Assembly: GCA_963752475.1 (NCBI GenBank)
Contig: CAVVYR010000004.1
Location: forward strand, 160,001-224,000
Direction of reading: 5' to 3'
Length of the DNA stretch: 64,000 bases
Origin: an uncultured Chloroflexia bacterium
GTDB lineage: Bacteria; Chloroflexota; Limnocylindria; Limnocylindrales; CSP1-4
Shown here: positions 8,093 to 53,043 of the stretch, piece by piece
Numbering within the stretch: the first letter of the stretch is position 1
How the letters are laid out: every line of letters begins with the position of its first letter
Translations under genes and position numbers: made by a program
The notes under the pieces: model-generated
Told to the model about the DNA's origin: nothing
Database searches by the model: none
The model's input: the letters and a program-made list of their open reading frames with translations, nothing else

Positions 8093-9505
8093 ATGAGTGA
8101 CACGCCGGCGACCCCTGCCGAGAAGACACCGGCAGCAGGTGGGCCGCAGCCAGGCGGCGGCACCTTCAATGAGTTCAAGCGCGCCGGCGGTGCGCTCTAC
8201 CGCGCCACCGAGGTGGATGGCCGACTGCTCGGCCTGATGATCGCGCTGGCCGTCGCCTGGATCATGTTCGACATCCTGTCCAGGATCTACGGACAGGGCG
8301 GCGACTCCATCTTCGGCGGCAGCTTCCTGACGCCGCGCAACCTCTTCAACCTGTCGGTCCAGACCGCCTCGGTCGCGGTCATGGCCACCGGCATGGTGCT
8401 CATCATCGTGTCGCGCAACATCGACCTCTCGGTCGGCTCCATGCTCGGCTTCCTGGCCATGGTCATGGCCATCGTGCAGAAGGAGATCCTGCCCGACTTC
8501 ATCGGGTTCGACAATCAGTTCACCTGGCTCATCGCGCTGGCCGTCGGCATCACCATGGGCGCACTCATCGGAGGCGGCCAAGGCTTCCTCATCGCCTTCC
8601 TGGGGATTCCGGCCTTCATCGTGACCCTGGGCGGCATGCTCGTCTGGCGTGGTGGAGCATTCCTGCTTGCGAGCGGACGGACGATCGCGCCGCTCGACGA
8701 GAACTTCAGCCGCATCGGTGGTGGCACGGAAGGTGCGCTGGGCTTGCTCGGGATGGACCTGGGCATCGGCTCTTCGACCTTGAGCTGGATCCTGGGCTTC
8801 CTCGTGGTCGGCGGCCTCGTCGTCCTCGTGGTCATGGCTCGCCGGCGCCGGCAGGCCTTCGACTTCCCCACCCGTCCGAGGTGGGCAGAGGCCCTCATCA
8901 TCGGTATCGGCACCGTGCTCGTGCTGGGTGGGGTCTGGGTCGTCAACAGCTACAACTGGCCCATCCGCGTGGCCCAGCGCTACGCTGAGGCCAACGGCAT
9001 CGAGATCCCCGAGGGCGGGCTGATCCTCTCGACCGGCATCGCCTACCCGGTGCTCATCATGATCGCGGTCGCCGCGGTCATGACCTGGATCGCACGTCGC
9101 CGCCAGTTCGGCCGCTACGTGTACGCCATCGGCGGGAACCCTGAAGCAGCTGAGCTCTCAGGCATCAACGTGCGCCGCACGCTGATGCTGACGTTCGCGC
9201 TCATGGGTGTGCTGGTGGCCATCAGCGCCGCTATCACCTCGGGTCGCCTGGACGCGGCCACGAATGCGCTGGGGCAGTGGAACGAGCTCTTCGTCATCGC
9301 TGCGGCCGTCATCGGTGGCACCTCGTTCGCCGGCGGCATCGGCACCATCCCAGGCGCCATCCTGGGCGCACTCTTCATGCAGACCCTGCAATCGGGCATG
9401 GTGCTCATCGGCTTTGACACGGCCCAGCAGAACATCGTCGTCGGCATCGTCCTGGTGATCGCCGTCGGCATCGATACCGCCTATCGCAGGAGGGCATCCA
9501 CATGA
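8093..9505 (+). CDS. xylH: Sugar ABC transporter permease (XylH type)
   Basis: [42 protein letters not shown]. Confidence 0.85.
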
Positions 9506-10365
9506 CCGCCGAAGAGACCGCCATGGCGGCTGCTCCCGAGCCCACACCCGAGCCCGAGGCAGAGCCTGAGACCCGAGCCCGCATCTCCACGAGCGGAACG
9601 CCGCTCGTGGAGATGCGCAAGATCAGGGTCTCCTTCGGCGGCGTCCACGCTGTCGACGACGTGACCATCGACCTCTACCCGGGCGAGGTCATGGGCCTCG
9701 TGGGAGGCAACGGTGCCGGCAAGTCGACGCTGATGAAGTGCCTGTCGGGCGCGCGCCCACCCGATTCGGGGTCGATCCTCGTGGACGGCCAGAAGGCGGA
9801 GATCAACAACCCGCGGCAGGCCAAGAAGTACAACATCGAGACCATCTACCAGACGCTGGCCCTGGCCGACAACCAAGACGCGCCGGCGAACATGTTCCTG
9901 GGCCGCGAGCTCAAGACGCGACTGGGCAATCTCGACGACGCGTCGATGGAGTCCGCTACGCGCGAGGTCATCGCCCGTCTGAACCCCAACTTCCAGAACT
10001 TCAAGTCACCGGTGAAGTCCCTGTCCGGCGGCCAGCGCCAAGCGGTCGCCATCGCGCGCGCCGTGCACTTCAACGCCAGGATCCTGATCATGGACGAGCC
10101 GACCGCAGCGCTTGGTCCGGCGGAGACGGCCCAGGTGCGCGACCTCATCAAGCAGCTCGAGAAGGAAGGCATCGGTATCTTCCTCATCAGCCACGACATC
10201 CATGACGTGTTCGACTTGTCGCATCGCATCGCGGTCATGTACCACGGCCGGATCGTGGGCATCGTCAACCGCGATGACGTCACGCCCGACGATGTCCTGG
10301 GCATGATCATCATGGGCAAGTCGCTCGAGGAAGTCACCGAGGAGGAGCGGGCCACGCTGCACTAG
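9502..10365 (+). CDS. Sugar ABC transporter ATP-binding protein (single domain)
   Basis: [22 protein letters not shown]. Confidence 0.9.
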
Positions 10366-14690: not shown

Positions 14691-17339
14691 CTAGGCCTTG
14701 GCCAGCAAGCGCTTGAGCTTGGGTACCGCGGCGAGGGCCGTCGGCGAGTCACGCATGGGCAGGTCGGTGCGGCGCTTTCCATCGAAGGCGTAGAGCGCGC
14801 CGGCCACGGCCGCCGCCGTGGGCACCAGCACCGCTTCGCCCATGCCCTTGGCGCCATAGGGGCCCTCCGGCTGGAACTCCTCCACCAGGATCGTCTCCAC
14901 CGGCGGCATGCCCGACGCGGGGATGATGTTGAGCGACTTCAGCTTGTCGGTGGTGGGGAAGCCGCCCTCGGTCTCGAACGTCTCGCTCAGCGTGTGACCC
15001 AGGCCCATGTGTACGCCGCCCACGACCTGGCCCTCGAGCATCAACGGGTCGAGCGCCTTGCCCACGTCGTGCGCGGCGATGAACTTCTCGATCGCGCCAT
15101 CGTCATCGAGGATGCAGACCTGCGTGGCCCAGCCGTAGCCGAAGTGCGTGATGGGCTCCTCGACGCTCTCGTCGCCCAGCTTGGTCGTCCAGTCCACGAC
15201 GACCTCGGCCCCGAAGGACTCGCCGGCAAGGTCGTCCAGGCGGCACCGTCGCGTGACCATCTCCTTGCGCAGCTTCTCGCAGGCCTGCAGCACTGCCCGA
15301 CCACCCAGCATCGTGGCGCGCGAGGCCGTGGTGATGCCGGTGTCGAGCTCGTAGCTCGTGTCGACGCGGACCTCGATCGACTCGGGCGGCAGGTCCAGCT
15401 CGTCGGACGCGATCTGGCGCATGACCGTGTGGGTCCCCTGCCCCATCTCCGTCCACGAGTGGTAGACCGTCAGTCGGCCGTCGCCCTCAGGCCGCACGAC
15501 CGCTCGCCCGAACTCCTTCATGCCGTTGCCGATGCCCGTGTTCTTGGCACCACAGGCGATGCCGGCGTACTTGGCGTTCCTGTACTGGTCCTTGACCGCC
15601 AACAGCGTGTCCTTCAGGCCCACGCCCGGGCCCAGCTTCTGGCCGGTGCCGAAGCGCTTCCCCTCTTCGAGTGCGTTGCGCCAACGGATCTCCCAGCCGT
15701 CGATGCCCACCGCCTCCGCCAGTCGGTCGAGCAGCGTCTCCATGCCGAAGTTGGCCTGGTTGGCACCGAAGCCGCGCATCGCGCCACAGGGCGGGTTGTT
15801 GGTCAGGATGGCGTTGGCCACCACGTCGACGTTGGGCACCTCGTACGCGCTGCAGGCGTGACCCGCGGCACGCTCGAGCACCTTGGCCCCGACGCTGGCA
15901 TAGCCGCCGTTGTCGCCGATGAAGCGCGCCTTGACGGCGGTCAGCTTCCCCTCGGCGTCACAGCCGACGGTGTACTCCATCCAGAAGCGATGGCGCTTGA
16001 TGGAGAAGCGCAGCGAATTGGCGCGGCTGAGCGCCAGCAGCACCGGGCGATCGGCCGCCAGTGCCAGCAGCGCGGCGTGGCCCTGGACGTTGAGGTCCTC
16101 CTTGCCGCCGAAGGCGCCGCCGGTGGCGACCTGCGTGACCAGCACGTCACCCTGCTCCCAGCCGAGGAGCGAGGCGATCTGGCGTCGGTCCTCCCACGCG
16201 CCCTGGCCCTGCGAGAGGACGTGCATACGCGGTCCCTCGCCGTTCTGGGGTACGGCCAGCGAGGACTCGGGCTCCAGGTAGGCATGCTCGATACCGGCGG
16301 TCTTGAAGGTGTCGGTGACGACGTGCGCGGAGCTCGCCAGCGCGGCCTCCGTGTCTCCGCGGGCATAGGCCGATTCGGAGAGCACGTTGCCCTCGGGTGC
16401 GATCTGCGGGGCACCGTCGGCCATGGCCTCGAAGGGGTCGGTCAAGGGCTCGAGCACCTCGTACTCGATCTCGACCAGCTCGGCCGCGGCACGGGCCTGA
16501 GCGCGTGTCTCCGCCGCTACCGCCGCGAGCACGTCACCGACATAGCGTGTGGTCTCGCCCTCGGCGACGAGCTGCCGCCAGTCATCGGTGATGAGACCCT
16601 GGTTGCGCTTGCCGGGGACATCGGCCGCGGTGATGACCGCGACCACGCCCGGAGCGGCCTCGGCCGCAGAGGTGTCGATCGACTTGACCACCGCTCGCGG
16701 ATGGTCGCTGAAGCGCAGGGCGCCGTGGAGCATGCCCGGGACGATGTGGTCGGCCACGTACTCCTGCATGCCCAGCACCTGCTCGCGCGAGCGGTACTTG
16801 GGTGCCGGATCGCCGACCGCGGCGCCCGGATGCGGCGCCGGCCGAGGACCGCCATTGCGTGCCACAGCCACCTGGCCGATGGCGTCGACGATCGAGAGGT
16901 AGCCCGTGCAGCGGCAGAGGTTGCCGGCGAGGGCCTTGGTGATGGTGTCGCGCTCGGGCTCGGCATCCTTGCGCAGCAGCGCCTCCGCCTTCATCACGAT
17001 GCCCGGGGTGCAGTAGCCGCACTGCGAGGCACCGGTGGCGCTGAAGGCATCGGCCCACAGGTCGCGCGAGTCCTCGGGCAGGCCCTCGAGCGTCTCGATC
17101 TCCTTGCCCTCGAAGCGCTCCGCCGGCTGGGCACACGAGACGACGGGACGGCCGTCGACGATGACGGTGCAGGCGCCACAGGAACCCTCGGGCGCACATC
17201 CATCCTTCATCGAACGCAGCCCGAGCTGGTTGCGCAGTAGGTAGAGCAGCGAGGTGCCCGCCTCGAAGTCGACCGAGCGGTCCTGTCCGTTGAGGGTGAT
17301 GTCCACGAGTCCTGCCATCCGTGCGTGAAGCGGTGCCAT
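14691..17339 (-). CDS. Xanthine-dehydrogenase-family Mo hydroxylase with fused 2Fe-2S and Mo-binding domains (resembles selenium-dependent Mo hydroxylases); start may be 17318
   Basis: KDGCAPEGSCGACT, QCGYCTPG, NLCRCTGY, GGAFGGK, AMRGFG, GAKGMGE. Confidence 0.85.
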   Translation of the reverse strand: MAPLHARMAGLVDITLNGQDRSVDFEAGTSLLYLLRNQLGLRSMKDGCAPEGSCGACTVIVDGRPVVSCAQPAERFEGKEIETLEGLPEDSRDLWADAFSATGASQCGYCTPGIVMKAEALLRKDAEPERDTITKALAGNLCRCTGYLSIVDAIGQVAVARNGGPRPAPHPGAAVGDPAPKYRSREQVLGMQEYVADHIVPGMLHGALRFSDHPRAVVKSIDTSAAEAAPGVVAVITAADVPGKRNQGLITDDWRQLVAEGETTRYVGDVLAAVAAETRAQARAAAELVEIEYEVLEPLTDPFEAMADGAPQIAPEGNVLSESAYARGDTEAALASSAHVVTDTFKTAGIEHAYLEPESSLAVPQNGEGPRMHVLSQGQGAWEDRRQIASLLGWEQGDVLVTQVATGGAFGGKEDLNVQGHAALLALAADRPVLLALSRANSLRFSIKRHRFWMEYTVGCDAEGKLTAVKARFIGDNGGYASVGAKVLERAAGHACSAYEVPNVDVVANAILTNNPPCGAMRGFGANQANFGMETLLDRLAEAVGIDGWEIRWRNALEEGKRFGTGQKLGPGVGLKDTLLAVKDQYRNAKYAGIACGAKNTGIGNGMKEFGRAVVRPEGDGRLTVYHSWTEMGQGTHTVMRQIASDELDLPPESIEVRVDTSYELDTGITTASRATMLGGRAVLQACEKLRKEMVTRRCRLDDLAGESFGAEVVVDWTTKLGDESVEEPITHFGYGWATQVCILDDDGAIEKFIAAHDVGKALDPLMLEGQVVGGVHMGLGHTLSETFETEGGFPTTDKLKSLNIIPASGMPPVETILVEEFQPEGPYGAKGMGEAVLVPTAAAVAGALYAFDGKRRTDLPMRDSPTALAAVPKLKRLLAKA

Positions 17340-17499
17340 GTGGCACTTCCGACACCCTACCCTTATCAGACACCGTTAGGCTAGGTGAACCTGCCGGCAG
17401 CGCTGCCGCCCAGATCCAGGCACGTGCCGCAGGCCCGTCGCACGTCGAGGCGAGACCCCTGTTCGGCGACGGTTACGACGAACAAAGTGGAGGCGACGT

Positions 17500-18983
<1,484 letters not shown>

Positions 18984-18987
<4 letters not shown>

Positions 18988-20360
18988 TCGCGAGCCGCCT
19001 CGTCTGCGCCGGTTGCGGCGCTGAGGTGCCTGCCGAGACGCCCATCGTGTGGGCTTGCCCGGCAGCAAGGGACGGCGACGATATCGACCACGTGCTGCAG
19101 CGGATCGTCGAGCCCGCGGCTGCCGCTGGCGAGCCGGACGACGAGCCCAGCCCGAACCCCTTCCTGCGCTATCGCCGGCGCTTCCACTCCTATCACGTGG
19201 CCATGGCCGCAGGCTGGAGCGACGAGCGCTTCACCGATCTGGTCGTCAGCCTCGATGAGGCCATCGCGGCGGTCGACGGCACGGGGTTCCGGACCACGCC
19301 CCTGGTGCGTTCCGCCGGGCTCGACGCTGAGCTCGGCTTCGGACCCGACGGCGGCGTCTTCGTGAAGGACGAGACCGGGAACGTGTCGGGCTCACACAAG
19401 GCGCGCCACCTCATGGGCGTGATGCTCGCGCTCAAGGTGGCCGAGGACATCGGTGCCGCCGACCCGGAGACCCCGCTGGCCATCGCCTCGTGCGGCAATG
19501 CCGCGCTGGCGGCGGCGGTCGTGGCCAGGGCGGCCGAGCGTCGCCTGCGTGTGTTCGTGCTACCCGGTGCGGAGCCGGCGGTCATGGCTCGCCTCGAGGC
19601 GCTGGGCGCGGAGCTCGAGGTCTGCGAACGACAGCCCGGTCGCTCGGGCGACCCCTCGGTGCATCGGCTGATGGACGCCATCGCCGACGGTGCGGTCCCC
19701 TTCACGGTGCAGGGCAACCTCAACGGACTCGCCATCGAGGGCGGGCAGACGCTGGCCTGGGAGCTGCTCGACCAGCTCAAGGACGAGGGGGTCGAGCTCG
19801 ACCGGCTCGTCATCCATGTCGGCGGCGGGGCCTTCGCCTCGTCCGCGGCCCAGGCTCTCGAGGAGGCCGTGGACGCCCGCGCCATCGCGGCGGTACCGGT
19901 CATCGACACCGTCCAGACGCAGGGTGGCCATCCGCTCAAGCGGGCCCATGACCGCGCGCTCGACCACCTCGAGGCCCAAGCTGGCACTCCGGTCGACCCC
20001 AAGCAGGTCGCCGGGGCCATCTCACAGGCGGTGCATCACCGCTCGGACTACATGTGGGCGTGGGAGACCGAACCGGTGTCGGTCGCTCACGGCATCCTCG
20101 ATGACGAGACGTACGACTGGGCAGCCGTCGTCCGTGCCATGCTCATCAGCGGCGGGCGTTCGCTGGTGGTCGACGAGGCCACGCTCGAAGCCGCCAACGC
20201 CCTGGCACTACCCCGGGTCGGGGTCGATGCCGACCACACTGGAACCGCCGGCCTCGCCGGCCTCATCCAGCTCACCCGCGACGGGATCGTCAGCCCGGAC
20301 GAGAACGTGGCAGTGATCTTCAGCGGGGCCCGACGCTCGTCGGACGCCCCCAGCAGCTAG
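18984..20360 (+). CDS. Threonine-synthase-like PLP enzyme with N-terminal Cys motif
   Basis: CAGC...WACP, KDETGNVSGSHKAR, ASCGNAA, VGGG; GTGA overlap with the upstream gene. Confidence 0.8.
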
Positions 20361-20382
20361 CAACAGGAGGAACACACCCCCG

Positions 20383-21339
20383 ATGAGAAGCTTTGCCGGC
20401 CGCGACATCCTGTCGCTCAAGGACATGACGCGCGACGAGTACCTGCGCATCTTCCAGGTCTGCGACGACCTGGCCCCGATCGCACGCGATCGCCGCAACA
20501 CCGACCTCCTCAAGGACAAGACGCTGCTGACCGCGTTCTATCAGCCGTCCACCCGAACGCGCCTCTCGACCGAGGCCGCGATGCACCGCCTCGGTGGCGC
20601 TGTGCAGGGTTTCAGCGACGCCAAGATGACCCGCGCCGGCGACTTCTACATGGAGTCGCTCAAGGACACCTTCCACATGCTGGAGTACTACGGCGACGTC
20701 ATCGCCATCCGGCACTACCAGCAGGGTGCGCCGCACGAGGCCGCCAAGTGGTCGTCCGTGCCCATCATCAACTGCGGCGACGGCTGGGGCGAGCACCCCA
20801 CGCAGGTGCTGACCGACCTCTACACCATCTGGAAGGAAAAGGGCTCGCTCGACGGGCTCAAGGTCATCCTGGTCGGTGACATGCGCATGCGCACCATGCA
20901 CTCGATCCTCTACGCCATGTCGCGTTTCGACATGGAGGCCATCATCATCGGCCCCGATGAGATGAGCCTGCTGCCCGAGTTCAAGGCTGAGCTCGACGAG
21001 CGCTCCACCTACTACCGCGAGGTCGGCGATATCCGCGATGTCATCGGCGAGGCCGATGTCATCTACATGGAGCCGGTCGTCCAGGCCGACTACACCAAGG
21101 GTCGCGTGGATGAGAAGGACGTGGAGAAGGGCCTCACCCCGCCCGAGTACGTCGTCAACCTCAAGCTCCTGCACGAGAAGGCCAAGCGCGACGCGTTCGT
21201 GCTGCACAGCCTGCCGCGCATGGACGAGCTCACCCAGGACGTCGACGAGACCCGCTTCGGCCGCTACTGGGTGGAGGCCTTCAACGGCGTGGTCATGCGC
21301 ATGGCGCTGCTGACCCTCGTCCTGGGCAAGGCCGAGTAA
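20383..21339 (+). CDS. Aspartate-carbamoyltransferase-like protein with altered substrate site
   Basis: FYQPSTRT, INCGDGWGEHPTQVLTD, HSLPR, NGVVMRMALL; lacks TRxQxER. Confidence 0.8.
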   Translation: MRSFAGRDILSLKDMTRDEYLRIFQVCDDLAPIARDRRNTDLLKDKTLLTAFYQPSTRTRLSTEAAMHRLGGAVQGFSDAKMTRAGDFYMESLKDTFHMLEYYGDVIAIRHYQQGAPHEAAKWSSVPIINCGDGWGEHPTQVLTDLYTIWKEKGSLDGLKVILVGDMRMRTMHSILYAMSRFDMEAIIIGPDEMSLLPEFKAELDERSTYYREVGDIRDVIGEADVIYMEPVVQADYTKGRVDEKDVEKGLTPPEYVVNLKLLHEKAKRDAFVLHSLPRMDELTQDVDETRFGRYWVEAFNGVVMRMALLTLVLGKAE

Positions 21340-21350
21340 GGGGCCGCACG

Positions 21351-22328
21351 ATGCAGACCGGACTTCGTGGGCGCGACCTCATCGCGCTTTCGGACTGGAC
21401 CAACGAAGAGATCGAGACCGCGCTCGACGTGGCCTTCGAGCTCAAGCGCAAGCGCGCACTCGGCGAGCGCCACGCCTACCTCCTGGACAAGACGCTGGCG
21501 ATGCTGTTCTTCTTCAGCAGCACCCGCACGCGTGCCTCGTTCGAGGCGGGCATGGCCCAGCTCGGCGGGCACGGCATGTTCATGGAGAGCCGCACCACGC
21601 AGATCGCTCACGGCGACACGGCCACCGAGATCGGCGAGATCCTGGGCCGCTACAACGATGGCATCGCCATCCGCCACGTGACCCCGGGCGAAGGCAACGA
21701 GTACATCCGCGCGGTGGCCGAGGCCTCGCGCGTGCCCGTGCTCAACATGCAGTGCGAGACGTACCACCCCTTCCAGATCCTCGCGGACCTGATGACGATC
21801 ATCGAGAAGAAGGGGCAGCTCAAGGGCCAGTCGATCACCATCAGCTGGGCCTACGCATCCTCGTACCAGAAGCCCATCTCGGTGCCGCAATCGCTGCTAC
21901 TGGCCGCGACGCGCTTCGGCATGGACGTCAAGCTCGTGCACCCGCCCGAGTTCAAGCTCATGCCGCAGATCATGGAAGAGGCCCGCGCCAACGTGGCCAG
22001 GGCCGGTGGCGCCTTCGAGCAGCTGACCGACTTCGATGCCGGCTTTGACGGTGCCGATGTGGTCTACGCCAAGTCGTGGGGCGCTCACACCCTGGGTGTC
22101 TCCGACGAGGAGGGCGCCAAGATCTCCGGGCAGTACACCGACTGGATCTCCGATGAGCGGCGCATGGCCATGACGGCCGACGACGCAATCTGGATGCATC
22201 CGCTGCCGGCGGACCGTGGCGTGGAGGTGGCCGATGCGGTCATCGACGGGCCCAAGTCCGCGGCCTTCGACGAGGCCGAGAACCGGCTCCACGCCCAGAA
22301 GGCGGTGATGGCCCTGACCATGGGCTGA
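21351..22328 (+). CDS. YgeW-like (knotted, OTCase-family) carbamoyltransferase
   Basis: SSTRTR, HPFQILAD, SWAYASSYQKPISVPQS, YAKSWG, HPLPADRG, EAENRLH. Confidence 0.8.
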   Translation: MQTGLRGRDLIALSDWTNEEIETALDVAFELKRKRALGERHAYLLDKTLAMLFFFSSTRTRASFEAGMAQLGGHGMFMESRTTQIAHGDTATEIGEILGRYNDGIAIRHVTPGEGNEYIRAVAEASRVPVLNMQCETYHPFQILADLMTIIEKKGQLKGQSITISWAYASSYQKPISVPQSLLLAATRFGMDVKLVHPPEFKLMPQIMEEARANVARAGGAFEQLTDFDAGFDGADVVYAKSWGAHTLGVSDEEGAKISGQYTDWISDERRMAMTADDAIWMHPLPADRGVEVADAVIDGPKSAAFDEAENRLHAQKAVMALTMG

Positions 22329-22353
22329 TCCCCGCGCTCACCACGCGATACTT

Positions 22354-22389
22354 GAAGGCGCGGCACTCGGGAGAGGGTGCCGCGCCTTC
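22354..22389 (+). terminator. Stem-loop closing the carbamoyltransferase operon
   Basis: GAAGGCGCGGCAC...GTGCCGCGCCTTC. Confidence 0.65.
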
Positions 22390-22643
22390 TTGCGTCACTC
22401 AGCCTGTTTGCGTCGCTCGGCGTTCGGCAGCTCGCAGGTGTGCGTGGTGCTGTGCTCGGCCGACGTGCTGGATCTGGGCGCAGGAATGCGCCACACCCCG
22501 AGGAGGCGGCGCGCTTGGTACGAGTCCGGGCGCCCTCGATGGCGCCGACTCACACTCGACCGCCGCGAATGGTCGGTGGTGCCGACCGGCTCTAGACGCG
22601 GCGTCCTCGACTCGCCACACTGGCCTCCTGAGGAGGTGCGCTG

Positions 22644-23066
22644 ATGCGAGTGGTGCGAGGGGCGGCCAACGCCGTCCTGATGGTGACGTTGATCAAGCCG
22701 CTGGCGCGGCTGATGGTGGGCAGATGGCGGAAGCAGGTGCAGGAGTCGCCAGCGGCCTCGCTCGGCATCCCCATGCAGGAGATGTTGGAGGCTGCCCTGG
22801 TCGAAGAGTTGGGGCCGGCTACGACTGAGAGTCAGGCAGCGGAGCTCGAGGCGGCCGTGACCGAGGCAGGACGGAGCACGCTCCGGCTGCTGCTTCTGGC
22901 AGGGATCGTGATCGCGGCCACCACGGCCACGGCCTACGCGGTGGCGAGCTACATCGGCCGACGGCGCAAGGCGCAAGCCGAAGAGCACAAGCTCGTGGCC
23001 GTGTCCATCGAGACCGACTCGCCGCAGCCGATCGAGGATGTGGCCCAGGAGGCGCTGTCCGGCTGA
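22644..23066 (+). CDS. Hypothetical membrane-anchored protein
   Basis: AGGAGG RBS, one hydrophobic segment followed by RRRK. Confidence 0.6.
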   Translation: MRVVRGAANAVLMVTLIKPLARLMVGRWRKQVQESPAASLGIPMQEMLEAALVEELGPATTESQAAELEAAVTEAGRSTLRLLLLAGIVIAATTATAYAVASYIGRRRKAQAEEHKLVAVSIETDSPQPIEDVAQEALSG

Positions 23067-25740: not shown

Positions 25741-26892
25741 ATGCGTGCCTTGCGAACCCCGGTAGCAGCGATCATCAGTACCAGCGTCCTCGTCGGCGCC
25801 ACGGCCGGCGCCACGAGCGCGGCCATCGACGACGCCATCAGCTACACCAGCGCGCCCGACCGCGTGGCGGTCTTCCTCAACAACGTGGCCTACGCCCGTG
25901 ACGAGGTAGCGCTGCCCGGCGGCGTCGACGTCAAGATCGTGCTCCCGCAGACGGTATACCCCGACACACTCGTGCTCCGCGAGAACGGCGAGCGCGTCGC
26001 CAACTACCGGCTCAACTGGAACACCGGGCAGCCGACGATCAAGTGGCAGTCGGCGACCGAGACCGATCTGCGCGACATCTCCATGGAGTACCTGCTCGGT
26101 GGCGTCAGCTGGCGCCCGACGTACGACATGTGGGTCGGTGCCGACGCCGACGAAACCGTCGGCTTCGACTACTTCGCCGAGATCACCGACAGCTCGCTCG
26201 AGCTCGAGGACGTGGAGACGCAGCTGGTGGCCGGCATGGTCGACCTCAACCGGCCCATCGCACCCGCTGCCGAGCTCTCGGTCAACCAGAAGATCGCCGG
26301 TTTCGAAGCGGCGGATGCGCTGGTCGTGTCAGCGCCCGTCGGCCAAGTCGATATCCAGCACACCTACGACATCGGACAATTGACCGCGGACCCAGGTGAC
26401 ACCATCTACTCCCAGCTCGTGGGCCAGGAGCTGCCGGCTCGCCGCCTGCACATCTGGAACGCGCAGACGGACCAGCAGGTCACGGTCATCTACAAGGTCA
26501 AGAACGAGAGTGACCAGCCCTTCAGCGAGGGCGTCGTGCGCAACTACCAGGACGGTCTCTTCATCGGCAGCGACTTCATCGAGCTCACGCCGGTCGGAGG
26601 TGAGGGCAGCGTGACCATCGGCCACCTGCAGGACGTGCGCGTGAAGCGCGAGCAGACGCAGGCTGCCGTGGACATGGGGCGTTTCGACTACCAGTACGAG
26701 ACCACGCTGACGATCGAGAACTTCACCGACACGACGGTGCACATGGACGTCGTCGACTACCTCCCACCGAACGCGGAGGAGCTGAAGGCGTCGATCGAGC
26801 CGCAGCTGGAGCCGGGCAACCTCATGCGCTGGCCCATCAGCGTCGAGCCCGGCGACGAGATGGTCATCACCTACGAGTACCTCGTGGACTGA
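25741..26892 (+). CDS. Secreted DUF4139/DUF4140-like protein
   Basis: Signal peptide, YLLGGVSWRPTYD, C-terminal TLTIENF...V.VVD.LP...LMRW; AAGGAG RBS. Confidence 0.7.
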   Translation: MRALRTPVAAIISTSVLVGATAGATSAAIDDAISYTSAPDRVAVFLNNVAYARDEVALPGGVDVKIVLPQTVYPDTLVLRENGERVANYRLNWNTGQPTIKWQSATETDLRDISMEYLLGGVSWRPTYDMWVGADADETVGFDYFAEITDSSLELEDVETQLVAGMVDLNRPIAPAAELSVNQKIAGFEAADALVVSAPVGQVDIQHTYDIGQLTADPGDTIYSQLVGQELPARRLHIWNAQTDQQVTVIYKVKNESDQPFSEGVVRNYQDGLFIGSDFIELTPVGGEGSVTIGHLQDVRVKREQTQAAVDMGRFDYQYETTLTIENFTDTTVHMDVVDYLPPNAEELKASIEPQLEPGNLMRWPISVEPGDEMVITYEYLVD

Positions 26893-27219: not shown

Positions 27220-28263
27220 AGCGCGCCGACCGCGTGGCGGTCTGCCTCGACGACGTGGACTACGACCGTGACGAGGTAGCGCTGTCCGGCGGCGTCGACG
27301 TCAAGATCGTGCGGCACGCAGGCGGTCTACCCGATCACGCTCGTGCTTCGCGAGAACGGCGAGCGAGTCGCAACTACCGGCTCAACTGGAGCACCAGCTG
27401 CCCACCATCAGAGTGGCAGTCGGTGACCGAGACCGATCTGCGCGTCATCGCCATGGAGTACCGGATCGGTGGCGTCAGCTGGCGCCCGACGTACGACATG
27501 TGGGTCGGTGCCGACGCCGACTAGACCGTCGGCTTCGACTACTTCGCCGAGCTGATCGACAGCTCGCTCGAGCTCGAGGACGTGGAGACGCAGCTGGTGG
27601 CCGGCATGGACGACCTCAACCGGCCCATCGCACCCGCTGCCGAGCTACTCGGTCAACCAGAAGATCGACGGTTTCGAAGCGGCCGATGCGCTGGTCGTGT
27701 CAGCGCGCGTCGGCCAAGTCGATATCCAGCACACCTACGACATCGGACAATTGACCGCGGACCCAGGTGACACCATCTACGCCCAGCTCATGGGCCAGGA
27801 GCTGCCGGCTCGCCGCCTGCACATCTGGAACGCGCAGACGGACCAGCAGGTCACGGTCATCTACAAGGTCAAGAACGAGAGTGACCAGCTCTTCAGCGAG
27901 GGCGTCATGCGCAACTACCAGGACGGTCTCTTCATCGGCAGCGACTTCATCGAGCTCACGCCGGTCGGAGGTGAGGGCAGCGTGACCATCGGCCACCTGC
28001 AGGACGTGCGCGTGAAGCGCGAGCAGACGCAGGCTGCCGTGGACATGGGGCGTTTCGACTACCAGTACGAGACCACGCTGACGATCGAGAACTTCACCGA
28101 CACGACGGTGCACATGGACGTCGTCGACTACCTCCCACCGAACGCGGAGGAGCTGAAGGCGTCGATCGAGCCGCAGCTGGAGCCGGGCAACCTCATGCGC
28201 TGGCCCATCAGCGTCGAGCCCGGCGACGAGATGGTCATCACCTACGAGTACCTCGTGGACTGA
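27220..28263 (+). pseudogene. 5'-truncated degenerate second copy of the DUF4139 gene
   Basis: Direct repeat of ~25850-26892, offset 1371 bp. It has TAG at 27522-27524 and indels in the 5' half; the 3' half is near-identical. Confidence 0.85.
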
Positions 28264-28407: not shown

Positions 28408-29229
28408 TCATGCGTCCGCCGCTGCTGCGACGGCTGCGCGGATCTCGTCACGCAGCGCCCTGGCCTCGGCGGCGGGGTCGTCCGCGAAGATGACCCCTCG
28501 CGACGAGTTGATGAGCAGCCCGCGCCCGTCAGCGGCAAGCCCGTTGGACACGACCGTTGCGGCATCGCCACCTTGCGCCCCGACGCCTGGCACCAGGAAC
28601 GTCAGGTCGGGACAGAGCTCGCGCACGCGGGCCAGCTCCGCGGGGTAGGTCGCACCCACCACCAGCAGACAGTTCCCGTTCGCGTTCCACTCGTCGCGGA
28701 CCCGGGTGGCCACCCGCTCCCAGAGCGGGGCGCCGCCGACATCGAGATCCTGCAGCTCGCCAGCACCGGGGTTGCTCGTGCGGCAGAGCACGATGCAGGC
28801 CTTGTCCTGCCGCTCGAGGAACGGCGTCAGGGCCTCCGCGCCAAGGTAGGGGTGCAGCGTCACCGCATCGAACCCCAGCTCGTCGAAGAGGGCTCCGACA
28901 TAGCCGGCGTTGGTGGAGCCGATGTCAGCGCGCTTGGCGTCGGCGATGGTGAAGACGTCCGGTGCGATCGAGAGCAGCAGCTCCATCGTCTGGGCCAGCT
29001 CGTCCCAGCCCTTGGCGCCGCGGGCCTCGTAGAAGGCGAGGTTGGGCTTGTAGGCCGCGGCGTACGGCAGCGTCTGCTCGATGACCCAGCGATTGAACTC
29101 GAACTGTGGGTGGTTCTCCTTGCCGAAGCGCCCGGGAATGCGCTCGATGGCGCTGTCGAGCCCGACGCACACGAGCGAATCGATCGCGTCCATGCGCGCT
29201 TGGAGCCTAGCCAGCGCCAACGCCGTCAT
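28408..29229 (-). CDS. pyrF: Orotidine-5'-phosphate decarboxylase
   Basis: CVGLDS, YKPNLAFYE, DAKRADIGST, RTSNPG, PGVGAQGG, INSSRG. Confidence 0.95.
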   Translation of the reverse strand: MTALALARLQARMDAIDSLVCVGLDSAIERIPGRFGKENHPQFEFNRWVIEQTLPYAAAYKPNLAFYEARGAKGWDELAQTMELLLSIAPDVFTIADAKRADIGSTNAGYVGALFDELGFDAVTLHPYLGAEALTPFLERQDKACIVLCRTSNPGAGELQDLDVGGAPLWERVATRVRDEWNANGNCLLVVGATYPAELARVRELCPDLTFLVPGVGAQGGDAATVVSNGLAADGRGLLINSSRGVIFADDPAAEARALRDEIRAAVAAAADA

Positions 29230-29858
29230 CGACCGCCCCAAGCATGGGGGTCGGCCAGCCACGAGCGGACCGACTGGGCCTGGCGCTCGTCGATGGTGCC
29301 GGCGGCGAGGGCCTCGGCGACGACGACCTCGAAGGTAGTCAGCGTGGTCAGCCTCACGCCGGCTGCGTCGAAGGCCTCTGTGGCCTCGCTGAAGCCGTAG
29401 GTGATGATGGCGAAGCAGTCGGCGATCTCCGCTCCGGCGTCGCGCAGTGCCGCCACGGCCGAGAGGCTGGAGCCGCCGGTCGTGACCATGTCCTCGACGA
29501 GGATGGTGCGCCGGCCGCCGACATCGCCACCCTCGATGCGTCGACCCAGGCCGTGGCCCTTGGCTTCCTTGCGCACGAAGACCGAAGGCATGCCGGCCGA
29601 GAAGGCCAGCGCGCTACTGTGCGGGATGCCAGCAGATTCCACGCCGGCGATGACAGGCCGACCCCTGGGCAGCGCGGCGGCGAAGCCGTCGATGATCACG
29701 CGCCACGGACCGGGCTCGAAGATGAGCTTGCGGTTGTCGACGTAGACGGGTGAGCGCAGGCCGGACTTGAAGGTCACCGGCTCATCTGGGGAGATGCCGA
29801 CCGTGCCGGCATCAAGGAGCGCAAGTGCGACCGCGCTGGAGCGGCTGTCGTCAGGCAT
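29226..29858 (-). CDS. pyrE: Orotate phosphoribosyltransferase
   Basis: FKSGLRSPVYVDNR, VRKEAKGHG, LVEDMVTTGGS. Confidence 0.95.
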   Translation of the reverse strand: MPDDSRSSAVALALLDAGTVGISPDEPVTFKSGLRSPVYVDNRKLIFEPGPWRVIIDGFAAALPRGRPVIAGVESAGIPHSSALAFSAGMPSVFVRKEAKGHGLGRRIEGGDVGGRRTILVEDMVTTGGSSLSAVAALRDAGAEIADCFAIITYGFSEATEAFDAAGVRLTTLTTFEVVVAEALAAGTIDERQAQSVRSWLADPHAWGGR

Positions 29859-30984
29859 CTGGCTCTCCCTCTGGCTCTCCCATTTCGGCCTCTCGCAAGA
29901 TCGATGCCGCCGCGAGCGGTCCTCGCAGCACCATCGCGGTGTAGAGCATCGCCGCCCGCGCGCCGGCAGCCCGGAACGCGAGCAGGTCCTCTCCGTTGAG
30001 GATGCCGCCCCCACCGACGATGTCCAGCCTCAGCCCGGAGACATCGATGGTGCGGTGCAGTCGCGAGACCACGTCGAGCGCACTCGAGCGCAGGCGCGAG
30101 CCACTGACCCCGGCGACCCCGACGCCCTCCGGCGTCGGCTGAGCCAGCGTGTTGGTCGCGACGACGGCGCGTACGCCGGCCTCTCCGAAGGCCCCGACGA
30201 TCCCGGTCAATTGTTCGTCCGAGAGGTCGGGACCGATCTTGACCCAGAGTGGCACATCGACCGCCTCGACGAGGGCCGCGCAGAGCTCTCGCGCCAGCTC
30301 GGCGGACTGGTTGCCTAGCGGGTCGTCCTCGGTATTGGGGCAGGACAGGTTGAGCGTCAGCCACGACGGTCCGGCCTCCAGCCCGGCGAAGGCAGCGGCG
30401 AAGATGCGGGCGGCCTCGACGAGCTCGGTGCGGCTCTGGGCGGCGTCGGTGACACCGGGGCTGACGGCGAGGTTCAGACCCCACGTCGGCGGCAGGTCGC
30501 CCGCATGCCGCGCGAGGTAGGCTGCGGCCGCACGCGCGCCAGGGTTGCGCAGGCCGACCCGGTTCTGCATCCAGCCGGCCGCACTGTCGCGCCAGAGCAC
30601 GCGTCCGCGGTTGCCGAGGCGTGGGTGTCGCGTGTAGGAGCCGAACTCGACGGGGCCGGCCAACGCCGCTGCCGAGCGCCAGCCCGGGATGATGTCCCGC
30701 CCGTCGCGGACCGCGTCCATCGCCTCCTCCTCGGTCGCGAAGCCGTCACCCTTGACCAGGCCGGCAGCCAGGATCGTGGGGTACGGCAGGTAGACCCCGC
30801 CGACGAAGACCGACCGCTTGGGCAGGACCGCCTCGCTCAGGGCCTGAGCCACCGTCAGGAGCGGGCCGGCGCCATCGAGGGTGCGCATCAACGACACCGT
30901 GCGGGCGTGTGCGGTCGTGGCGTCGGTGCGGGCGATCATCGCCGCCGCCGGTCGCCAGGCCAGCTCGTACAGCCGCAGCATCAC
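29851..30984 (-). CDS. pyrD: Dihydroorotate dehydrogenase (divergent)
   Basis: LAAG, NRVGLRNPG, NLSCPNT, VKIGPD, ATNT, GVSG; lies within the pyr operon. Confidence 0.8.
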   Translation of the reverse strand: MMLRLYELAWRPAAAMIARTDATTAHARTVSLMRTLDGAGPLLTVAQALSEAVLPKRSVFVGGVYLPYPTILAAGLVKGDGFATEEEAMDAVRDGRDIIPGWRSAAALAGPVEFGSYTRHPRLGNRGRVLWRDSAAGWMQNRVGLRNPGARAAAAYLARHAGDLPPTWGLNLAVSPGVTDAAQSRTELVEAARIFAAAFAGLEAGPSWLTLNLSCPNTEDDPLGNQSAELARELCAALVEAVDVPLWVKIGPDLSDEQLTGIVGAFGEAGVRAVVATNTLAQPTPEGVGVAGVSGSRLRSSALDVVSRLHRTIDVSGLRLDIVGGGGILNGEDLLAFRAAGARAAMLYTAMVLRGPLAAASILREAEMGEPEGEPDA

Positions 30985-32054
30985 GGAACCAGCCGCCTCC
31001 CCTCGCCCGGCTGCGCCAGCACCTTCTCGCCGTCGAAGGCGACGCGGCCCCGGATACGGACCTCGGTGACGCGACCCCAGACGCGCACGCCCGAGTACGG
31101 CGACCAGCCCGGGCTGCAGTGCAAACCATCGTCGCTGATGACGTAGCTGCTGTCGAGATCGAGCAGCGTGTACGTCTCGGGCGGCGGCACCAGGCCGAAG
31201 ATGCGCTGGGCGTTGATGGCGACCAGCTCCACGAGGCGTTCCGCGGTCAGGCCGCGCTCGCGCATGGCCAGCCCCAGCAGCGGGATGCTCGTCTCGAGGC
31301 CCGGCAGCCCGAAGGGTGGGTTCGCCGACTCCTTCTCCTCGCGAGTGTGTGGCGCGTGGTCGCTCTCGATGGTATCGACGGTGCCATCGAGCACGCCCGC
31401 CCAGAGGGCCTCCTGATCGGCCGGCGTCTTCAGTGGTGGCTTGACCATGGCGAAGCCGCCGAGCCGATCCCGGTCGGACCCATCGAGGTAGAGGTGGTGC
31501 GGCGTGACGCCGATGCTGATGGGCACGCCATCGGCCTTGGCCTCGCGCAGCAGCCTCAACTCGGTGGCCATCGAGACGTGGCAGAAGTGGGCTCGCACAC
31601 CCGTCTCGCGGACCAGTCGCAGGGTCGCCGCGAGGGTCTCGCCCTCAGCGTGCAGGGCCACGGGCTTGTCGGTCGCGCCTGCCCAGGCCAGCAGGTGACG
31701 GCGTCGAGACACATCGTCGTCGAGCAACAGCGTACCGGTGGTGTGGTCGCAGTACATCTTCAGGCCGGCCGCGTCTGGCGCACCGGCCTCGTACTCCGAG
31801 CCATCGGCCGACTGGTCGGCACCCATGTAGAGCCCGAAGTCACAGCGGGCACGGGCAGCGACGAAGTCGTACTTGGACCGCAGGCGCTCCGCGGTCGTGG
31901 TGTTGGGTGGCGTGTTGGGCATGTCGAGCACGGCCCAGTAGCCGCCCGCGAGGGCTGCTGCGGTCTCGCGCTCGACGGTCGCCTTGTGCGCCCAGTCCAG
32001 GTCGCGCAGATGGACGTGCGGGTCCACTGCGCCGGGTATCCGAAGGGTCGTCAC
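30981..32054 (-). CDS. pyrC: Dihydroorotase (compact, CAD-like type)
   Basis: DPHVHLRD, DMPNTPP, HFCHVS, TPHHL, VKPPL, SDHAPH, PGLET. Confidence 0.9.
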   Translation of the reverse strand: MTTLRIPGAVDPHVHLRDLDWAHKATVERETAAALAGGYWAVLDMPNTPPNTTTAERLRSKYDFVAARARCDFGLYMGADQSADGSEYEAGAPDAAGLKMYCDHTTGTLLLDDDVSRRRHLLAWAGATDKPVALHAEGETLAATLRLVRETGVRAHFCHVSMATELRLLREAKADGVPISIGVTPHHLYLDGSDRDRLGGFAMVKPPLKTPADQEALWAGVLDGTVDTIESDHAPHTREEKESANPPFGLPGLETSIPLLGLAMRERGLTAERLVELVAINAQRIFGLVPPPETYTLLDLDSSYVISDDGLHCSPGWSPYSGVRVWGRVTEVRIRGRVAFDGEKVLAQPGEGRRLVP

Positions 32055-32081
32055 GGCCCGTCGCTCCTGGTGACTCGACCG

Positions 32082-33143
32082 CTATTCGTCGTGGGCGCCG
32101 AGCACGCCGGCCAGCAGTGCCATCCGCATATACATGCCGTTCTGCATCTGGTGGAAGTAGACCGAGCGCGGGTCGTTGTCGAGGACCGCGTGATCGATCT
32201 CGGTACCCATCTCGTGCTTGCGCGGCAGCGGGTGCATCAGGATGGCCTCGTCGGAGGCCCTGGCGAGGACATCGGGCGTCATCACGAAGTCGCCCGCGAT
32301 GGCGTCGTAGTCGGCCACCTCCTCGAAGCGCTCCTCCTGGACACGGGTCCAGTAGATGACATCACTCTGGCCGATGACCGAGTCGAGCGAGCTCGTCTCA
32401 TTGACCTCGACGCCGCGTCCCTTGACGAAATCGATGACGCTCTGCGGTGTGCGCAGCGACTCGGGCGAGACGAGGTTGATCTTCAGATCCTCGGCACCGT
32501 AGAGGGCGAGGATCTTGGCCAGCGAGTGGACCGTACGACCGTGAGCGAGGTCGCCCACGAGCGTCACGGACTGGCCGTCCGCGGTGCCCTTGAAATCGAC
32601 GATGGTGAAGAGGTCGAGCAGAGCCTGTGTGGGGTGCTCGCCGATGCCGTCGCCACCGCTGACCACGACCGAGCGGGTGCCGAGTCGGGTGGTCAACTGG
32701 TCGAGCGCGTAGGCGGCCTCGTACGAAGAGCGGACCTCCGGATGGCGGAGCACGACGACGTCGGCATAGCTGCCGGCCGCGCGCACGGAGTCGGCCAGGT
32801 TCTCACCCTTGTAGACCGAGCTGAACTTGACACCGCCGGCGGTGGCCACGACCTCGCCGCCGAGGCGGAGCATGGCCGCCTGGAAGGACATGTCGGTCCG
32901 TGTGCTGGCCTCGAAGAAGAGCGTCGCCATGATGCGACGCCTGCAAAGCTTGAGTACCGACTGATCGCCTGTCCTCACTCGGGACCGAAGATCGCCGGTG
33001 ACCCGGATCAACTCATCGAGGTCCGGCCTGGCGAACTGCTCCACCGAGACGATGTGCTTCCCGGCGAGGGTGCCATCGATGGCGGGCGGGGTGAAAGCGG
33101 CAGAGCCGGTGGACACGCCGACACTGTCGAGCGCAGAGGACAT
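32082..33143 (-). CDS. pyrB: Aspartate carbamoyltransferase (canonical)
   Basis: FFEASTRT, SSVYKGE, GDGIGEHPTQALLD, TRVQEER, HPLPR. Confidence 0.95.
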   Translation of the reverse strand: MSSALDSVGVSTGSAAFTPPAIDGTLAGKHIVSVEQFARPDLDELIRVTGDLRSRVRTGDQSVLKLCRRRIMATLFFEASTRTDMSFQAAMLRLGGEVVATAGGVKFSSVYKGENLADSVRAAGSYADVVVLRHPEVRSSYEAAYALDQLTTRLGTRSVVVSGGDGIGEHPTQALLDLFTIVDFKGTADGQSVTLVGDLAHGRTVHSLAKILALYGAEDLKINLVSPESLRTPQSVIDFVKGRGVEVNETSSLDSVIGQSDVIYWTRVQEERFEEVADYDAIAGDFVMTPDVLARASDEAILMHPLPRKHEMGTEIDHAVLDNDPRSVYFHQMQNGMYMRMALLAGVLGAHDE

Positions 33144-33455
33144 GAGGCTATCTCCCGAGGGCACTACGGGTATGGGGATTGGGGTCCACGCAGAGTCTAT
33201 CCGACCGTTGCGTCCACGCACCACCCCACGTCTCGCATGGCGGGCGCGAGCGGAGGCCTCGAACGGCGCGCTGTTCAGCCCCTGAGCAATCTCGACCAGC
33301 ATGCGCCGGATCCTGCAGGTCTTGCTCCCCTGCTGGGCACGAGTGCCACCAATGTCCTCGGCAAGAGCAGGAATGACGGATTCGGTGTCGCACGAGCCAA
33401 GATCGCACGCCTGGTGAACATCGGGCTTGCGCCTCGCTATGGGCTTGCGCCCTCG

Positions 33456-46528: not shown

Positions 46529-53043
<6,515 letters not shown>

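Follow-up and report, generated by a model that had tools for sequence, protein, structure and literature searches.

TC1, a pseudo-aspartate carbamoyltransferase from conserved gene clusters of Chloroflexota and Actinomycetota, and its proposed role in reductive urate breakdown

Introduction

Pseudo-ATCases are paralogues annotated as aspartate carbamoyltransferases (ATCases) that lack the RxQ motif; the term was found only in Barba et al. (2013, PMC4016543) within the literature searched, and three subgroups are distinguished there. The present work concerns one such paralogue, here called TC1, encoded by an open reading frame (ORF) of 318 amino acids with an ATG start at 20383..21339 of a 64,000-nucleotide stretch of DNA from an uncultured Chloroflexota bacterium (the window; positions 160,001 to 224,000 of contig CAVVYR010000004.1). 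According to the sections of Barba et al. that deal with these proteins, Rxyl_2847 of Rubrobacter xylanophilus phosphorolyses allantoate to ureidoglycine and carbamoyl phosphate (the UGTCase activity), and subgroup 2 of the text contains only a protein of Nocardioides sp. JS614, whose gene adjoins a ygeW homologue, xdh genes and hyuA and to which no function is given in those sections; transcarbamylase equilibria are described as favouring carbamoylation. As stated by Shi et al. (2015), the RxQxER motif is shared by every known ATCase, in which Arg229 and Gln231 bind the β-carboxylate of aspartate, and Arg167 and Lys84 its α-carboxylate.

A reductive route of urate breakdown through 2,8-dioxopurine was described in 2025 in two preprints (Li et al.; Liu et al.) and a commentary (Percudani 2025). 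As outlined there, urate is converted into 2,8-dioxopurine by XdhD or XdhAC, dearomatised by YgfK or UacX, and opened by SsnA and HyuA to 2,3-diureidopropanoate, whose two ureido groups are removed by YgeW, with the carbamate kinase YqeA making ATP, and by YgeY, after which diaminopropanoate is converted into pyruvate by YgeX. The commentary treats the assignment of the two ureido groups to the cleaving enzymes as an open question. In the SsnA clusters of Chloroflexota, as reported by Li et al., a luciferase-family F420 reductase takes the place of YgfK, and any PF00185 neighbour was counted as 'YgeW' in that survey.

On the basis of its sequence, its predicted fold, its own clade and the conserved neighbourhood described below, we infer, with moderate confidence, that TC1 is a catabolic transcarbamylase that phosphorolyses the 2-ureido (Nα) group of 2,3-diureidopropanoate or of 3-amino-2-ureidopropanoate, yielding carbamoyl phosphate. 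An initial annotation, made from the sequence, had proposed an Nα-carbamoyltransferase for a non-acidic amino acid whose side chain might hold an amino or ureido group; gene context makes 2,3-diureidopropanoate, albizziin or 3-amino-2-ureidopropanoate plausible compounds of this kind, and adds to that guess the 2013 pseudo-ATCase name, a likely catabolic direction (phosphorolysis together with carbamate kinase) and a conserved purine-degradation operon. No characterised ATCase-like enzyme was found in the literature on diureidopropanoate, which was covered in parts of the main texts and in some cases by title and start of the abstract; the TC1 family is known by name, not by function, and its assignment to this pathway is new as far as the searches reach. 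The proposal supplies a function that can be tested for a pseudo-ATCase subgroup that has lacked one since 2013, and would bring one enzyme, together with two pyridoxal 5'-phosphate (PLP) enzymes, into a pathway whose first publication dates from 2025.

Active-site motifs and predicted fold of TC1

TC1 was aligned with PyrB of Escherichia coli, the PyrB encoded in the window and six relatives, and separately with 90 other members of the family. Two Pfam domains are recognised in it (OTCace_N, 1.9e-43; OTCace, 5.1e-22), and the motifs that bind carbamoyl phosphate are kept, namely STRT(R), Arg105-His106 (IRH), HPTQ and the H-x-LPR motif in the form HSLPR. The equivalent of Arg167 is also kept in the alignments to the PyrBs (VGDMRM-RTMHS, with a one-residue deletion), in agreement with the initial annotation, which had pointed to STRT, HPTQ, HSLPR and the arginine after VGD. 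The 80s loop reads MTRAGDFYMES, with a RAGD insertion, in contrast to S..KKGE or SSVYKGE in ATCases, and Lys84 is replaced by Tyr; neither this lysine nor Ser80, both contributed in ATCases by the adjacent subunit, has a counterpart in TRAGDFYMES, and the SSxxKGE motif, previously noted as missing, is indeed replaced by TRAGDFYME. In the 240s loop, YMEPVVQADYTKGR stands against YMTRVQKER of ATCases, with Thr228 changed to Glu, Arg229 to Pro, an insertion of 4-5 residues and no RxQxER motif. The replacement of TRxQxER by YMEPVVQ, also proposed in the initial annotation, stands as regards Arg229 and is ambiguous as regards Gln231, since a one-residue shift of the alignment lets the Gln of 'VVQ' fill that position; judged from the alignments, the loss of Arg229 and Lys84 is, unlike that of Gln231, unambiguous. 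Read in this way, the site would keep the binders of carbamoyl phosphate and of the α-carboxylate, and appears to have lost the cationic β-carboxylate pocket and to have gained Glu and Asp nearby.

The canonical pyrB of the window provides the comparison within the same genome. Its product carries FSSVYKGE and WTRVQEER, the two motifs being as first described (SSVYKGE and TRVQEER), and its gene forms part of a pyr operon (28408-33302) that also holds pyrC-, pyrD-, pyrE- and pyrF-like genes (28408-32054, from Pfam matches of the neighbours) and covers pyrimidine synthesis; the earlier statement that TC1 is not needed for that purpose is borne out. Although TC1 and PyrB share the fold, 38-42% identity, all carbamoyl-phosphate motifs and Arg167, TC1 differs in the two loops, in HSLP for HPLP and in its location outside the pyr operon, and the view that it is not a working aspartate carbamoyltransferase holds as a prediction from these residues.

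The AlphaFold model of TC1 is of high confidence (pLDDT 93.3; pTM 0.92), only the 80s and 240s loops, which determine specificity, being less confident. The best fold match is the ATCase of Pyrococcus abyssi with bound PALA, N-(phosphonacetyl)-L-aspartate (1ml4; TM 0.89/0.92; 42% identity), and the same entry is the best match by sequence in the PDB; from its fold, TC1 is presumably a homotrimer.

Relationship to described transcarbamylases

TC1 belongs to the Nocardioides JS614 subgroup of pseudo-ATCases, because of its identity to the Nocardioides protein, its HSLP motif and the gene context described for that subgroup. The TC1 orthologue of a Nocardioides locus (L065) falls in the same 90%-identity cluster as ABL81144.1/WP_011755091.1; ABL81144.1, in which HSLPR and YMEPVVQADYT are present, is 73% (233/318) identical to TC1, and we take it, from its gene context, to be the JS614 protein of the 2013 subgroup. 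The likeness extends to the ATCase annotation beside a genuine pyrB located in a different gene context, the kept carbamoyl-phosphate motifs, the replaced RxQ, the HSLP variant and the adjoining ygeW homologue, which in the window (TC2) lies 11 nt 3' of TC1; locus L065 itself comprises TC1-TC2, an XdhA-like gene and HyuA. Pseudo-ATCases are described as branching near ATC II, the genuine ATCase closest to them being that of P. abyssi, which is also the best PDB match of TC1 by sequence and by fold; in a quick tree TC1 is in a clade separate from the ATCases with RxQ. The subgroup was described from one organism and with no function, whereas the set considered here extends over several phyla, with at least 80 genomes at species level, and has a pathway role proposed for it.

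The subgroup numbers in Table 1 of Barba et al. seem not to follow their text and the legend of Figure 5, since subgroup 2 appears there with degenerate motifs although a single organism cannot have H[ST]LP, and T298 (H[ST]LP) is attributed by Shi et al. to UGTCase, which is subgroup 1 in the text. The HSLP of TC1 matches row 3 of that table, and the assignment made here relied on the gene context given in the text and on HSLP.

UGTCase resembles TC1 in its position on the ATCase branch, the lack of RxQ, the H(T/S)LP motif and an adjoining carbamate kinase, and, according to the published account, it acts in purine catabolism on a diureido acid, from which it splits the ureido group at the carbon that bears the carboxylate; the substrate proposed for TC1, 2,3-diureidopropanoate, is one carbon longer than allantoate. 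The differences reported are that UGTCase belongs to another subgroup, occurs in an oxidative context with uricase and allantoinase, and has a listed 80s-loop lysine, K106*. Among the UGTCase residues listed by Shi et al. in their Table 1 (S102*, K106*, R189, S258, K261 and T298), TC1 has equivalents of R189 (Arg) and T298 (Ser) and no 80s lysine, the comparison being one of listed residues. The YgeW/YgeY/YgeX/YqeA module of E. coli shares with the TC1 cluster the cleavage of ureido groups by a transcarbamylase with a carbamate kinase, followed by a PLP lyase; however, the identity of TC1 to E. coli YgeW is only 23% over 257 residues and its position is on the ATCase branch, the TC1 cluster lacks YgeX and contains a pair of unrelated PLP enzymes, and YgeY, absent from clusters of the window type, adjoins TC1 in another type.

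Distribution and phylogeny

A search of 5.8 billion proteins returned at least 120 clusters, those listed being 76-97% identical to TC1, and the named members among the listed clusters carry the label aspartate carbamoyltransferase; for this family, the ATCase name in public databases is almost certainly a systematic mis-annotation. In contigs of one genome per species, 587 of 598 pattern matches encode a TC1 relative, and the best 80 of the 587 (73-96% identical) come from Chloroflexota, Actinomycetota (Acidimicrobiales, Nocardioides, Fodinibacter luteus and Frankiaceae), Planctomycetota, Myxococcota and others. The motifs of TC1 are repeated in every full-length family member inspected, at 66-96% identity and across phyla, so that the changes in its site are not chance decay. 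Against representatives clustered at 50% identity, full-length matches drop abruptly, the values of 76 and 74% being followed by 49% at most.

A quick IQ-TREE analysis of 96 rows was made, with representatives restricted to 290-360 aa among 150 and with three broken rows (P0135, P0149 and P0170) excluded. The TC1 rows, including the Nocardioides protein and the second operon type described below, form a clade of nine rows (SH-aLRT 96) apart from the genuine ATCases, which answers the question raised at the outset of whether the paralogue has a clade of its own. This clade is nested in one of 39 rows (SH-aLRT 95) that are ATCase-like, have the 'RAGD' 80s loop and no RxQ, and are likewise apart from genuine ATCases. 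The RxQ-type 240s motif, scored by a regular expression, occurs in 43 of the 96 rows, TC1 not being among them, and requires four changes on the tree. TC2 groups with E. coli YgeW on the branch of ornithine carbamoyltransferases (OTCases) and YgeW, and TC1 is on the ATCase branch.

About 30 rows of the 39-row clade have a T-R-A/S-G-D loop, most of them being 50%-identity representatives. The protein representatives P0126-P0257 are a large and diverse ATCase-like set with a T-R-A/S-G-D 80s loop, R-x-R replacing KYGR, and highly variable 240s loops; this variety suggests many substrate specificities among pseudo-ATCases.

Operon organisation and conserved neighbourhood

TC1 is the third of four co-directional genes separated by tiny gaps, following PALPa and PALPb, which encode putative PLP enzymes, and preceding TC2, which encodes a second transcarbamylase (Table 1). 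TC2 shows 35% identity to YgeW of E. coli (121/347; E 3e-59), with QIAHG-T and WAY-SY-KP-SVPQ as common stretches, and scores under every NCBIfam cut-off. PALPa reaches 33.8 bits with Pfam PALP (under the 35-bit cut-off), 62.8 bits with a CysK-like model and E 1.4e-14 with CysK in the PDB; the best PDB match of PALPb has E 1.4e-10, and its GSHKAR motif, judged by eye, holds the candidate PLP lysine. By their sequences, PALPa and PALPb are conserved families of PLP fold-type II without a close characterised relative, and may supply a new lyase for diaminopropanoate or albizziin. Their identification as YgeX homologues was considered and rejected, BLASTP to E. coli YgeX giving E values of only 0.003 and 0.08; they would be analogues at most. 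A scan of 17200-22800 for promoters and terminators gave nothing above shuffled sequence.

For the 80 best TC1 loci, ORFs were called and clustered, and the recurrent clusters were named by Pfam/NCBIfam and counted at fixed identity thresholds (Table 1). PALPa and PALPb are nearly always paired upstream of TC1, and among the 73 loci whose flank is long enough, 54 have TC2 immediately 3' of TC1. Urate-pathway markers, one or more per locus, occur in 60/80 loci, and only one locus, with a short flank (L041), holds no marker, PLP gene, kinase or TC2. The carbamate kinases found in 45 loci are 44-55% identical to YqeA; genes for a PnrA-type nucleoside ABC transporter, an adenosine deaminase and an Amidohydro_3 protein also recur nearby. 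The TC1 loci are the Chloroflexota SsnA clusters noted by Li et al. Of the marks of a reductive cluster, an XdhD/XdhAC-type enzyme, SsnA with a dearomatising reductase, and a YgeW-type transcarbamylase with carbamate kinase were found.

The idea that TC1 is the sole decarbamoylase in some operons, and would there have to release the α-amino group for the PLP enzymes, raised by the 19/73 loci without TC2 directly downstream, was rejected, since the five genomes that were re-checked all hold a TC2 homologue (50-54% identity). In four of them the homologue is on the same contig, about 1.5-4 kb from the fetched flank, the fifth genome being G155; two of these four nearby homologues are annotated, and one of them has an adjoining carbamate kinase.

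TC1 genomes in the Chloroflexota sample

A sample of 151 genomes of the phylum was surveyed, the tallies including G145, with SsnA and YgeY matches and no TC1 orthologue, and G038. TC1 orthologues (at least 66% identity) occur in eight of the 151, and an SsnA-family match at E≤1e-60 is found in 8/8 TC1 genomes against 39/151 overall, related genomes not being independent. In the nearest sampled relative of the window genome (G088), XDH-SsnA-YgfK are divergent from PALPa-PALPb-TC1-TC2. The window genome has an SsnA-like/YgfK-like pair on another contig (C6:730146-734237; locus L087, 7889-12382), whose SsnA-like gene is 82% identical to SsnA of a TC1 locus (L010), and a hydantoinase candidate on C6 beside pyrimidine-catabolism-like genes. 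The YgfK-like protein matches only the C-terminal half of the YgfK model (407-912 of 1012), and the SsnA of G088 has the same short form as that of the window genome.

YgeX and YgeY were looked for in the window genome (88.8% complete) and neither was found, so that something else must free the α-amino group and deaminate the product; YgeX was not above the cut-off in five TC1 genomes. A second type of operon, YgeY-TC1-TC2-carbamate kinase with an 8-oxoguanine-deaminase-like gene nearby, is present in L090-L093 (G085, G043, G055 and G067). YgeY adjoins TC1, directly upstream, in these four annotated genomes, and is adjacent by coordinates in a fifth (G012). The TC1 of this type is 66-68% identical to that of the window, SsnA and the LLM reductase are elsewhere in those genomes, and their PALPa homologues (46-49% identity) stand alone in the two loci inspected. 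A simple replacement of the hydrolase YgeY by TC1 was therefore rejected as a general rule, YgeY being present in most TC1 genomes of the phylum sample and adjoining TC1 in five of them; the idea still holds for the window genome and G088, in which YgeY was not found.

Proposed role of TC1 and alternative explanations

In the role proposed for TC1, an XDH homologue, a YgfK- or F420-type reductase, SsnA and a hydantoinase would convert urate into 2,3-diureidopropanoate. TC1, with phosphate, would then split off the 2-ureido group, converting 2,3-diureidopropanoate into albizziin or 3-amino-2-ureidopropanoate into 2,3-diaminopropanoate, and the YgeW-like TC2 would split off the other, 3-ureido group. 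The carbamoyl phosphate from both could yield ATP via carbamate kinase, and the freed α-amino acid would be finished by PALPa and PALPb in place of YgeX, the whole being a Chloroflexota/Actinomycetota form of reductive urate breakdown. The allocation of the 2-ureido group to TC1 and of the 3-ureido group to TC2 is suggested by the site residues, by the analogy with UGTCase and by the positions of the two proteins on the ATCase and OTCase/YgeW branches, and the catabolic direction by carbamate kinase and the catabolic neighbours. Nα specificity of TC1 would support the order of Liu et al., in which YgeW acts on the 3-ureido group. A tentative extension, possible rather than probable, is a form of the pathway that maximises energy yield: both ureido groups would be phosphorolysed, Nα by TC1 and Nβ by TC2, each urate thus providing two carbamoyl phosphates and, from them, two ATP, with PALPa and PALPb replacing YgeX, in soil and water Chloroflexota and Actinomycetota. 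The reductive urate pathway is studied, according to the literature consulted, for urate-lowering probiotics, and a second decarbamoylase that is phosphorolytic and yields ATP could be of practical interest.

Several observations weigh against this role. In the window genome, the SsnA-like ORF on C6 covers only positions 57-339 of the 441-position SsnA model, and no carbamate kinase lies near the operon, the sole kinase being a 36-39% homologue on C29. In the phylum sample, YgeY is above the cut-off in six of the eight TC1 genomes, and the order YgeY-TC1-TC2-carbamate kinase leaves three ureido-cleaving candidates for two ureido groups. TC1 scores 241.6 bits with the ATCase equivalog TIGR00670, just above its cut-off of 236.95 (window pyrB, 283.8). 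The intermediates described by Liu et al. are (R)/D-configured, whereas ATCases use L-aspartate. Lastly, the formation of albizziin from UMH with HyuA, YgeW and phosphate, as reported by Li et al., corresponds to 2-ureido cleavage by E. coli YgeW; if TC2 acts in the same way, TC1 must take the 3-ureido group, that is, act on albizziin, which is a poor fit to its site.

This last observation leads to the opposite regiochemistry, in which TC2 removes the 2-ureido group and TC1 phosphorolyses the 3-ureido group of albizziin to 2,3-diaminopropanoate. It draws on the homology of TC2 to the enzyme of Li et al. and on the joint occurrence of TC1 and TC2, adjacent in most loci and both present in all of the re-checked genomes. 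Nevertheless, the carboxylate of albizziin would have to sit at the place of the β-carboxylate of aspartate, for which TC1 has lost the binders (Arg229 and Lys84) while keeping Arg167; Liu et al. give the 3-ureido group to YgeW, and the cleavage of ureido groups in side chains is characteristic of enzymes of the OTCase branch, to which TC2 belongs, so that we regard this arrangement as unlikely. The idea that TC1 is a UGTCase like Rxyl_2847, acting on allantoate from oxidative urate breakdown, agrees with the common pseudo-ATCase group on the ATCase branch, with H(S/T)LP, and with the carbamate kinase (45/80 loci) and purine-catabolic neighbours. It appears improbable, since the window genome (88.8% complete) holds no uricase domain and no allantoinase above the cut-off (best 262 against 357.85 bits), neither is found among the annotated conserved neighbour clusters, and SsnA, the YgfK or F420 reductase and the YgeW-like gene are markers of the reductive pathway; moreover, the 80s-loop lysine listed for UGTCase by Shi et al. 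is not in TC1, and the sections of Barba et al. consulted place the Nocardioides protein in another subgroup than UGTCase.

Two other functions have a very low probability in our judgement. That TC1 is a real second, or a catabolic, aspartate carbamoyltransferase accords with the TIGR00670 score, the database name and the ATCases as best PDB matches, and is opposed by the loss of Arg229 and Lys84, the lack of an RxQ-type motif, the separate clade, the position outside the pyr operon with a canonical pyrB present, and a score of 222.9 bits with NF002032, under its cut-off of 263 bits. A biosynthetic carbamoyltransferase making a ureido amino acid, for instance for a natural product, has precedents in the diaminopropionate and diaminobutyrate transcarbamylases of antibiotic clusters and would suit the equilibria of transcarbamylases, which favour carbamoylation, but those biosynthetic enzymes are of the OTCase branch with an HDLP motif, no non-ribosomal peptide synthetase or polyketide synthase genes turned up among the annotated conserved neighbour clusters, and the neighbours of TC1 are catabolic (carbamate kinase, XDH, SsnA, deaminases and a nucleoside ABC transporter).

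Features of the window

Table 1. Features of the TC1 operon and its surroundings in the window, and their occurrence among the 80 best TC1 loci
Feature	Position	Strand	Basis	Loci
Fused 2Fe-2S and molybdopterin dehydrogenase, selenium-dependent xanthine dehydrogenase type (XDH)	14691..17339	-	divergent from operon; TIGR03311 915.3 bits (cut-off 830.45); Pfam	49/80
PALPa, putative fold-type II PLP enzyme, distantly cysteine-synthase-like	17500..18987	+	invariant HK at 111-112; STGNY-RGG loop	59/80
PALPb, putative fold-type II PLP enzyme, distantly threonine-synthase-like	18942..20360	+	Pfam PALP 4.3e-32; weak NCBIfam/PDB matches	55/80
Shine-Dalgarno-like AGGAGG	20365..20370	+	read from sequence; 12 nt 5' of TC1 start, 5 nt past PALPb stop	
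TC1, pseudo-ATCase, ATCase-fold transcarbamylase without Lys84 and Arg229	20383..21339	+	ORF; Pfam/NCBIfam; motif alignments; AlphaFold; own clade	
TC2, short YgeW-like transcarbamylase	21351..22328	+	starts 11 nt after TC1; 35% identity to YgeW	57/80
Canonical pyrB, comparator outside the TC1 system	32082..33143 (33302 with upstream start)	-	TIGR00670 283.8 bits; SSVYKGE and TRVQEER	
Carbamate kinase				45/80
SsnA				37/80
F420-type LLM reductase				24/80
FAD subunit				18/80
8-oxoguanine-deaminase-like				17/80
D-hydantoinase				12/80
YgeY				2/80
YgeX				1/80

The pyrB ORF (32082-33302) includes 53 codons of possible 5' extension (406 against 353 aa), and family models match the long form only from residue 81. 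Upstream (5') of the TC1 cluster, a BPD_transp_2 permease and an ABC ATPase are encoded at 8093-10365. Two DUF4139 ORFs with a weak Top6b_C match lie at 25741-26892 and 27697-28263, about 800 bases apart, and may be one interrupted gene or a duplication. At 50750-53000, C is nearly absent over about 2.2 kb (several 250-base bins contain none) in a contig otherwise of 68% G+C, with T/G-rich degenerate repeats and no ORF of at least 150 aa inside; this stretch looks like an artefact of assembly or base calling, or like strand-specific C-to-T hypermutation.

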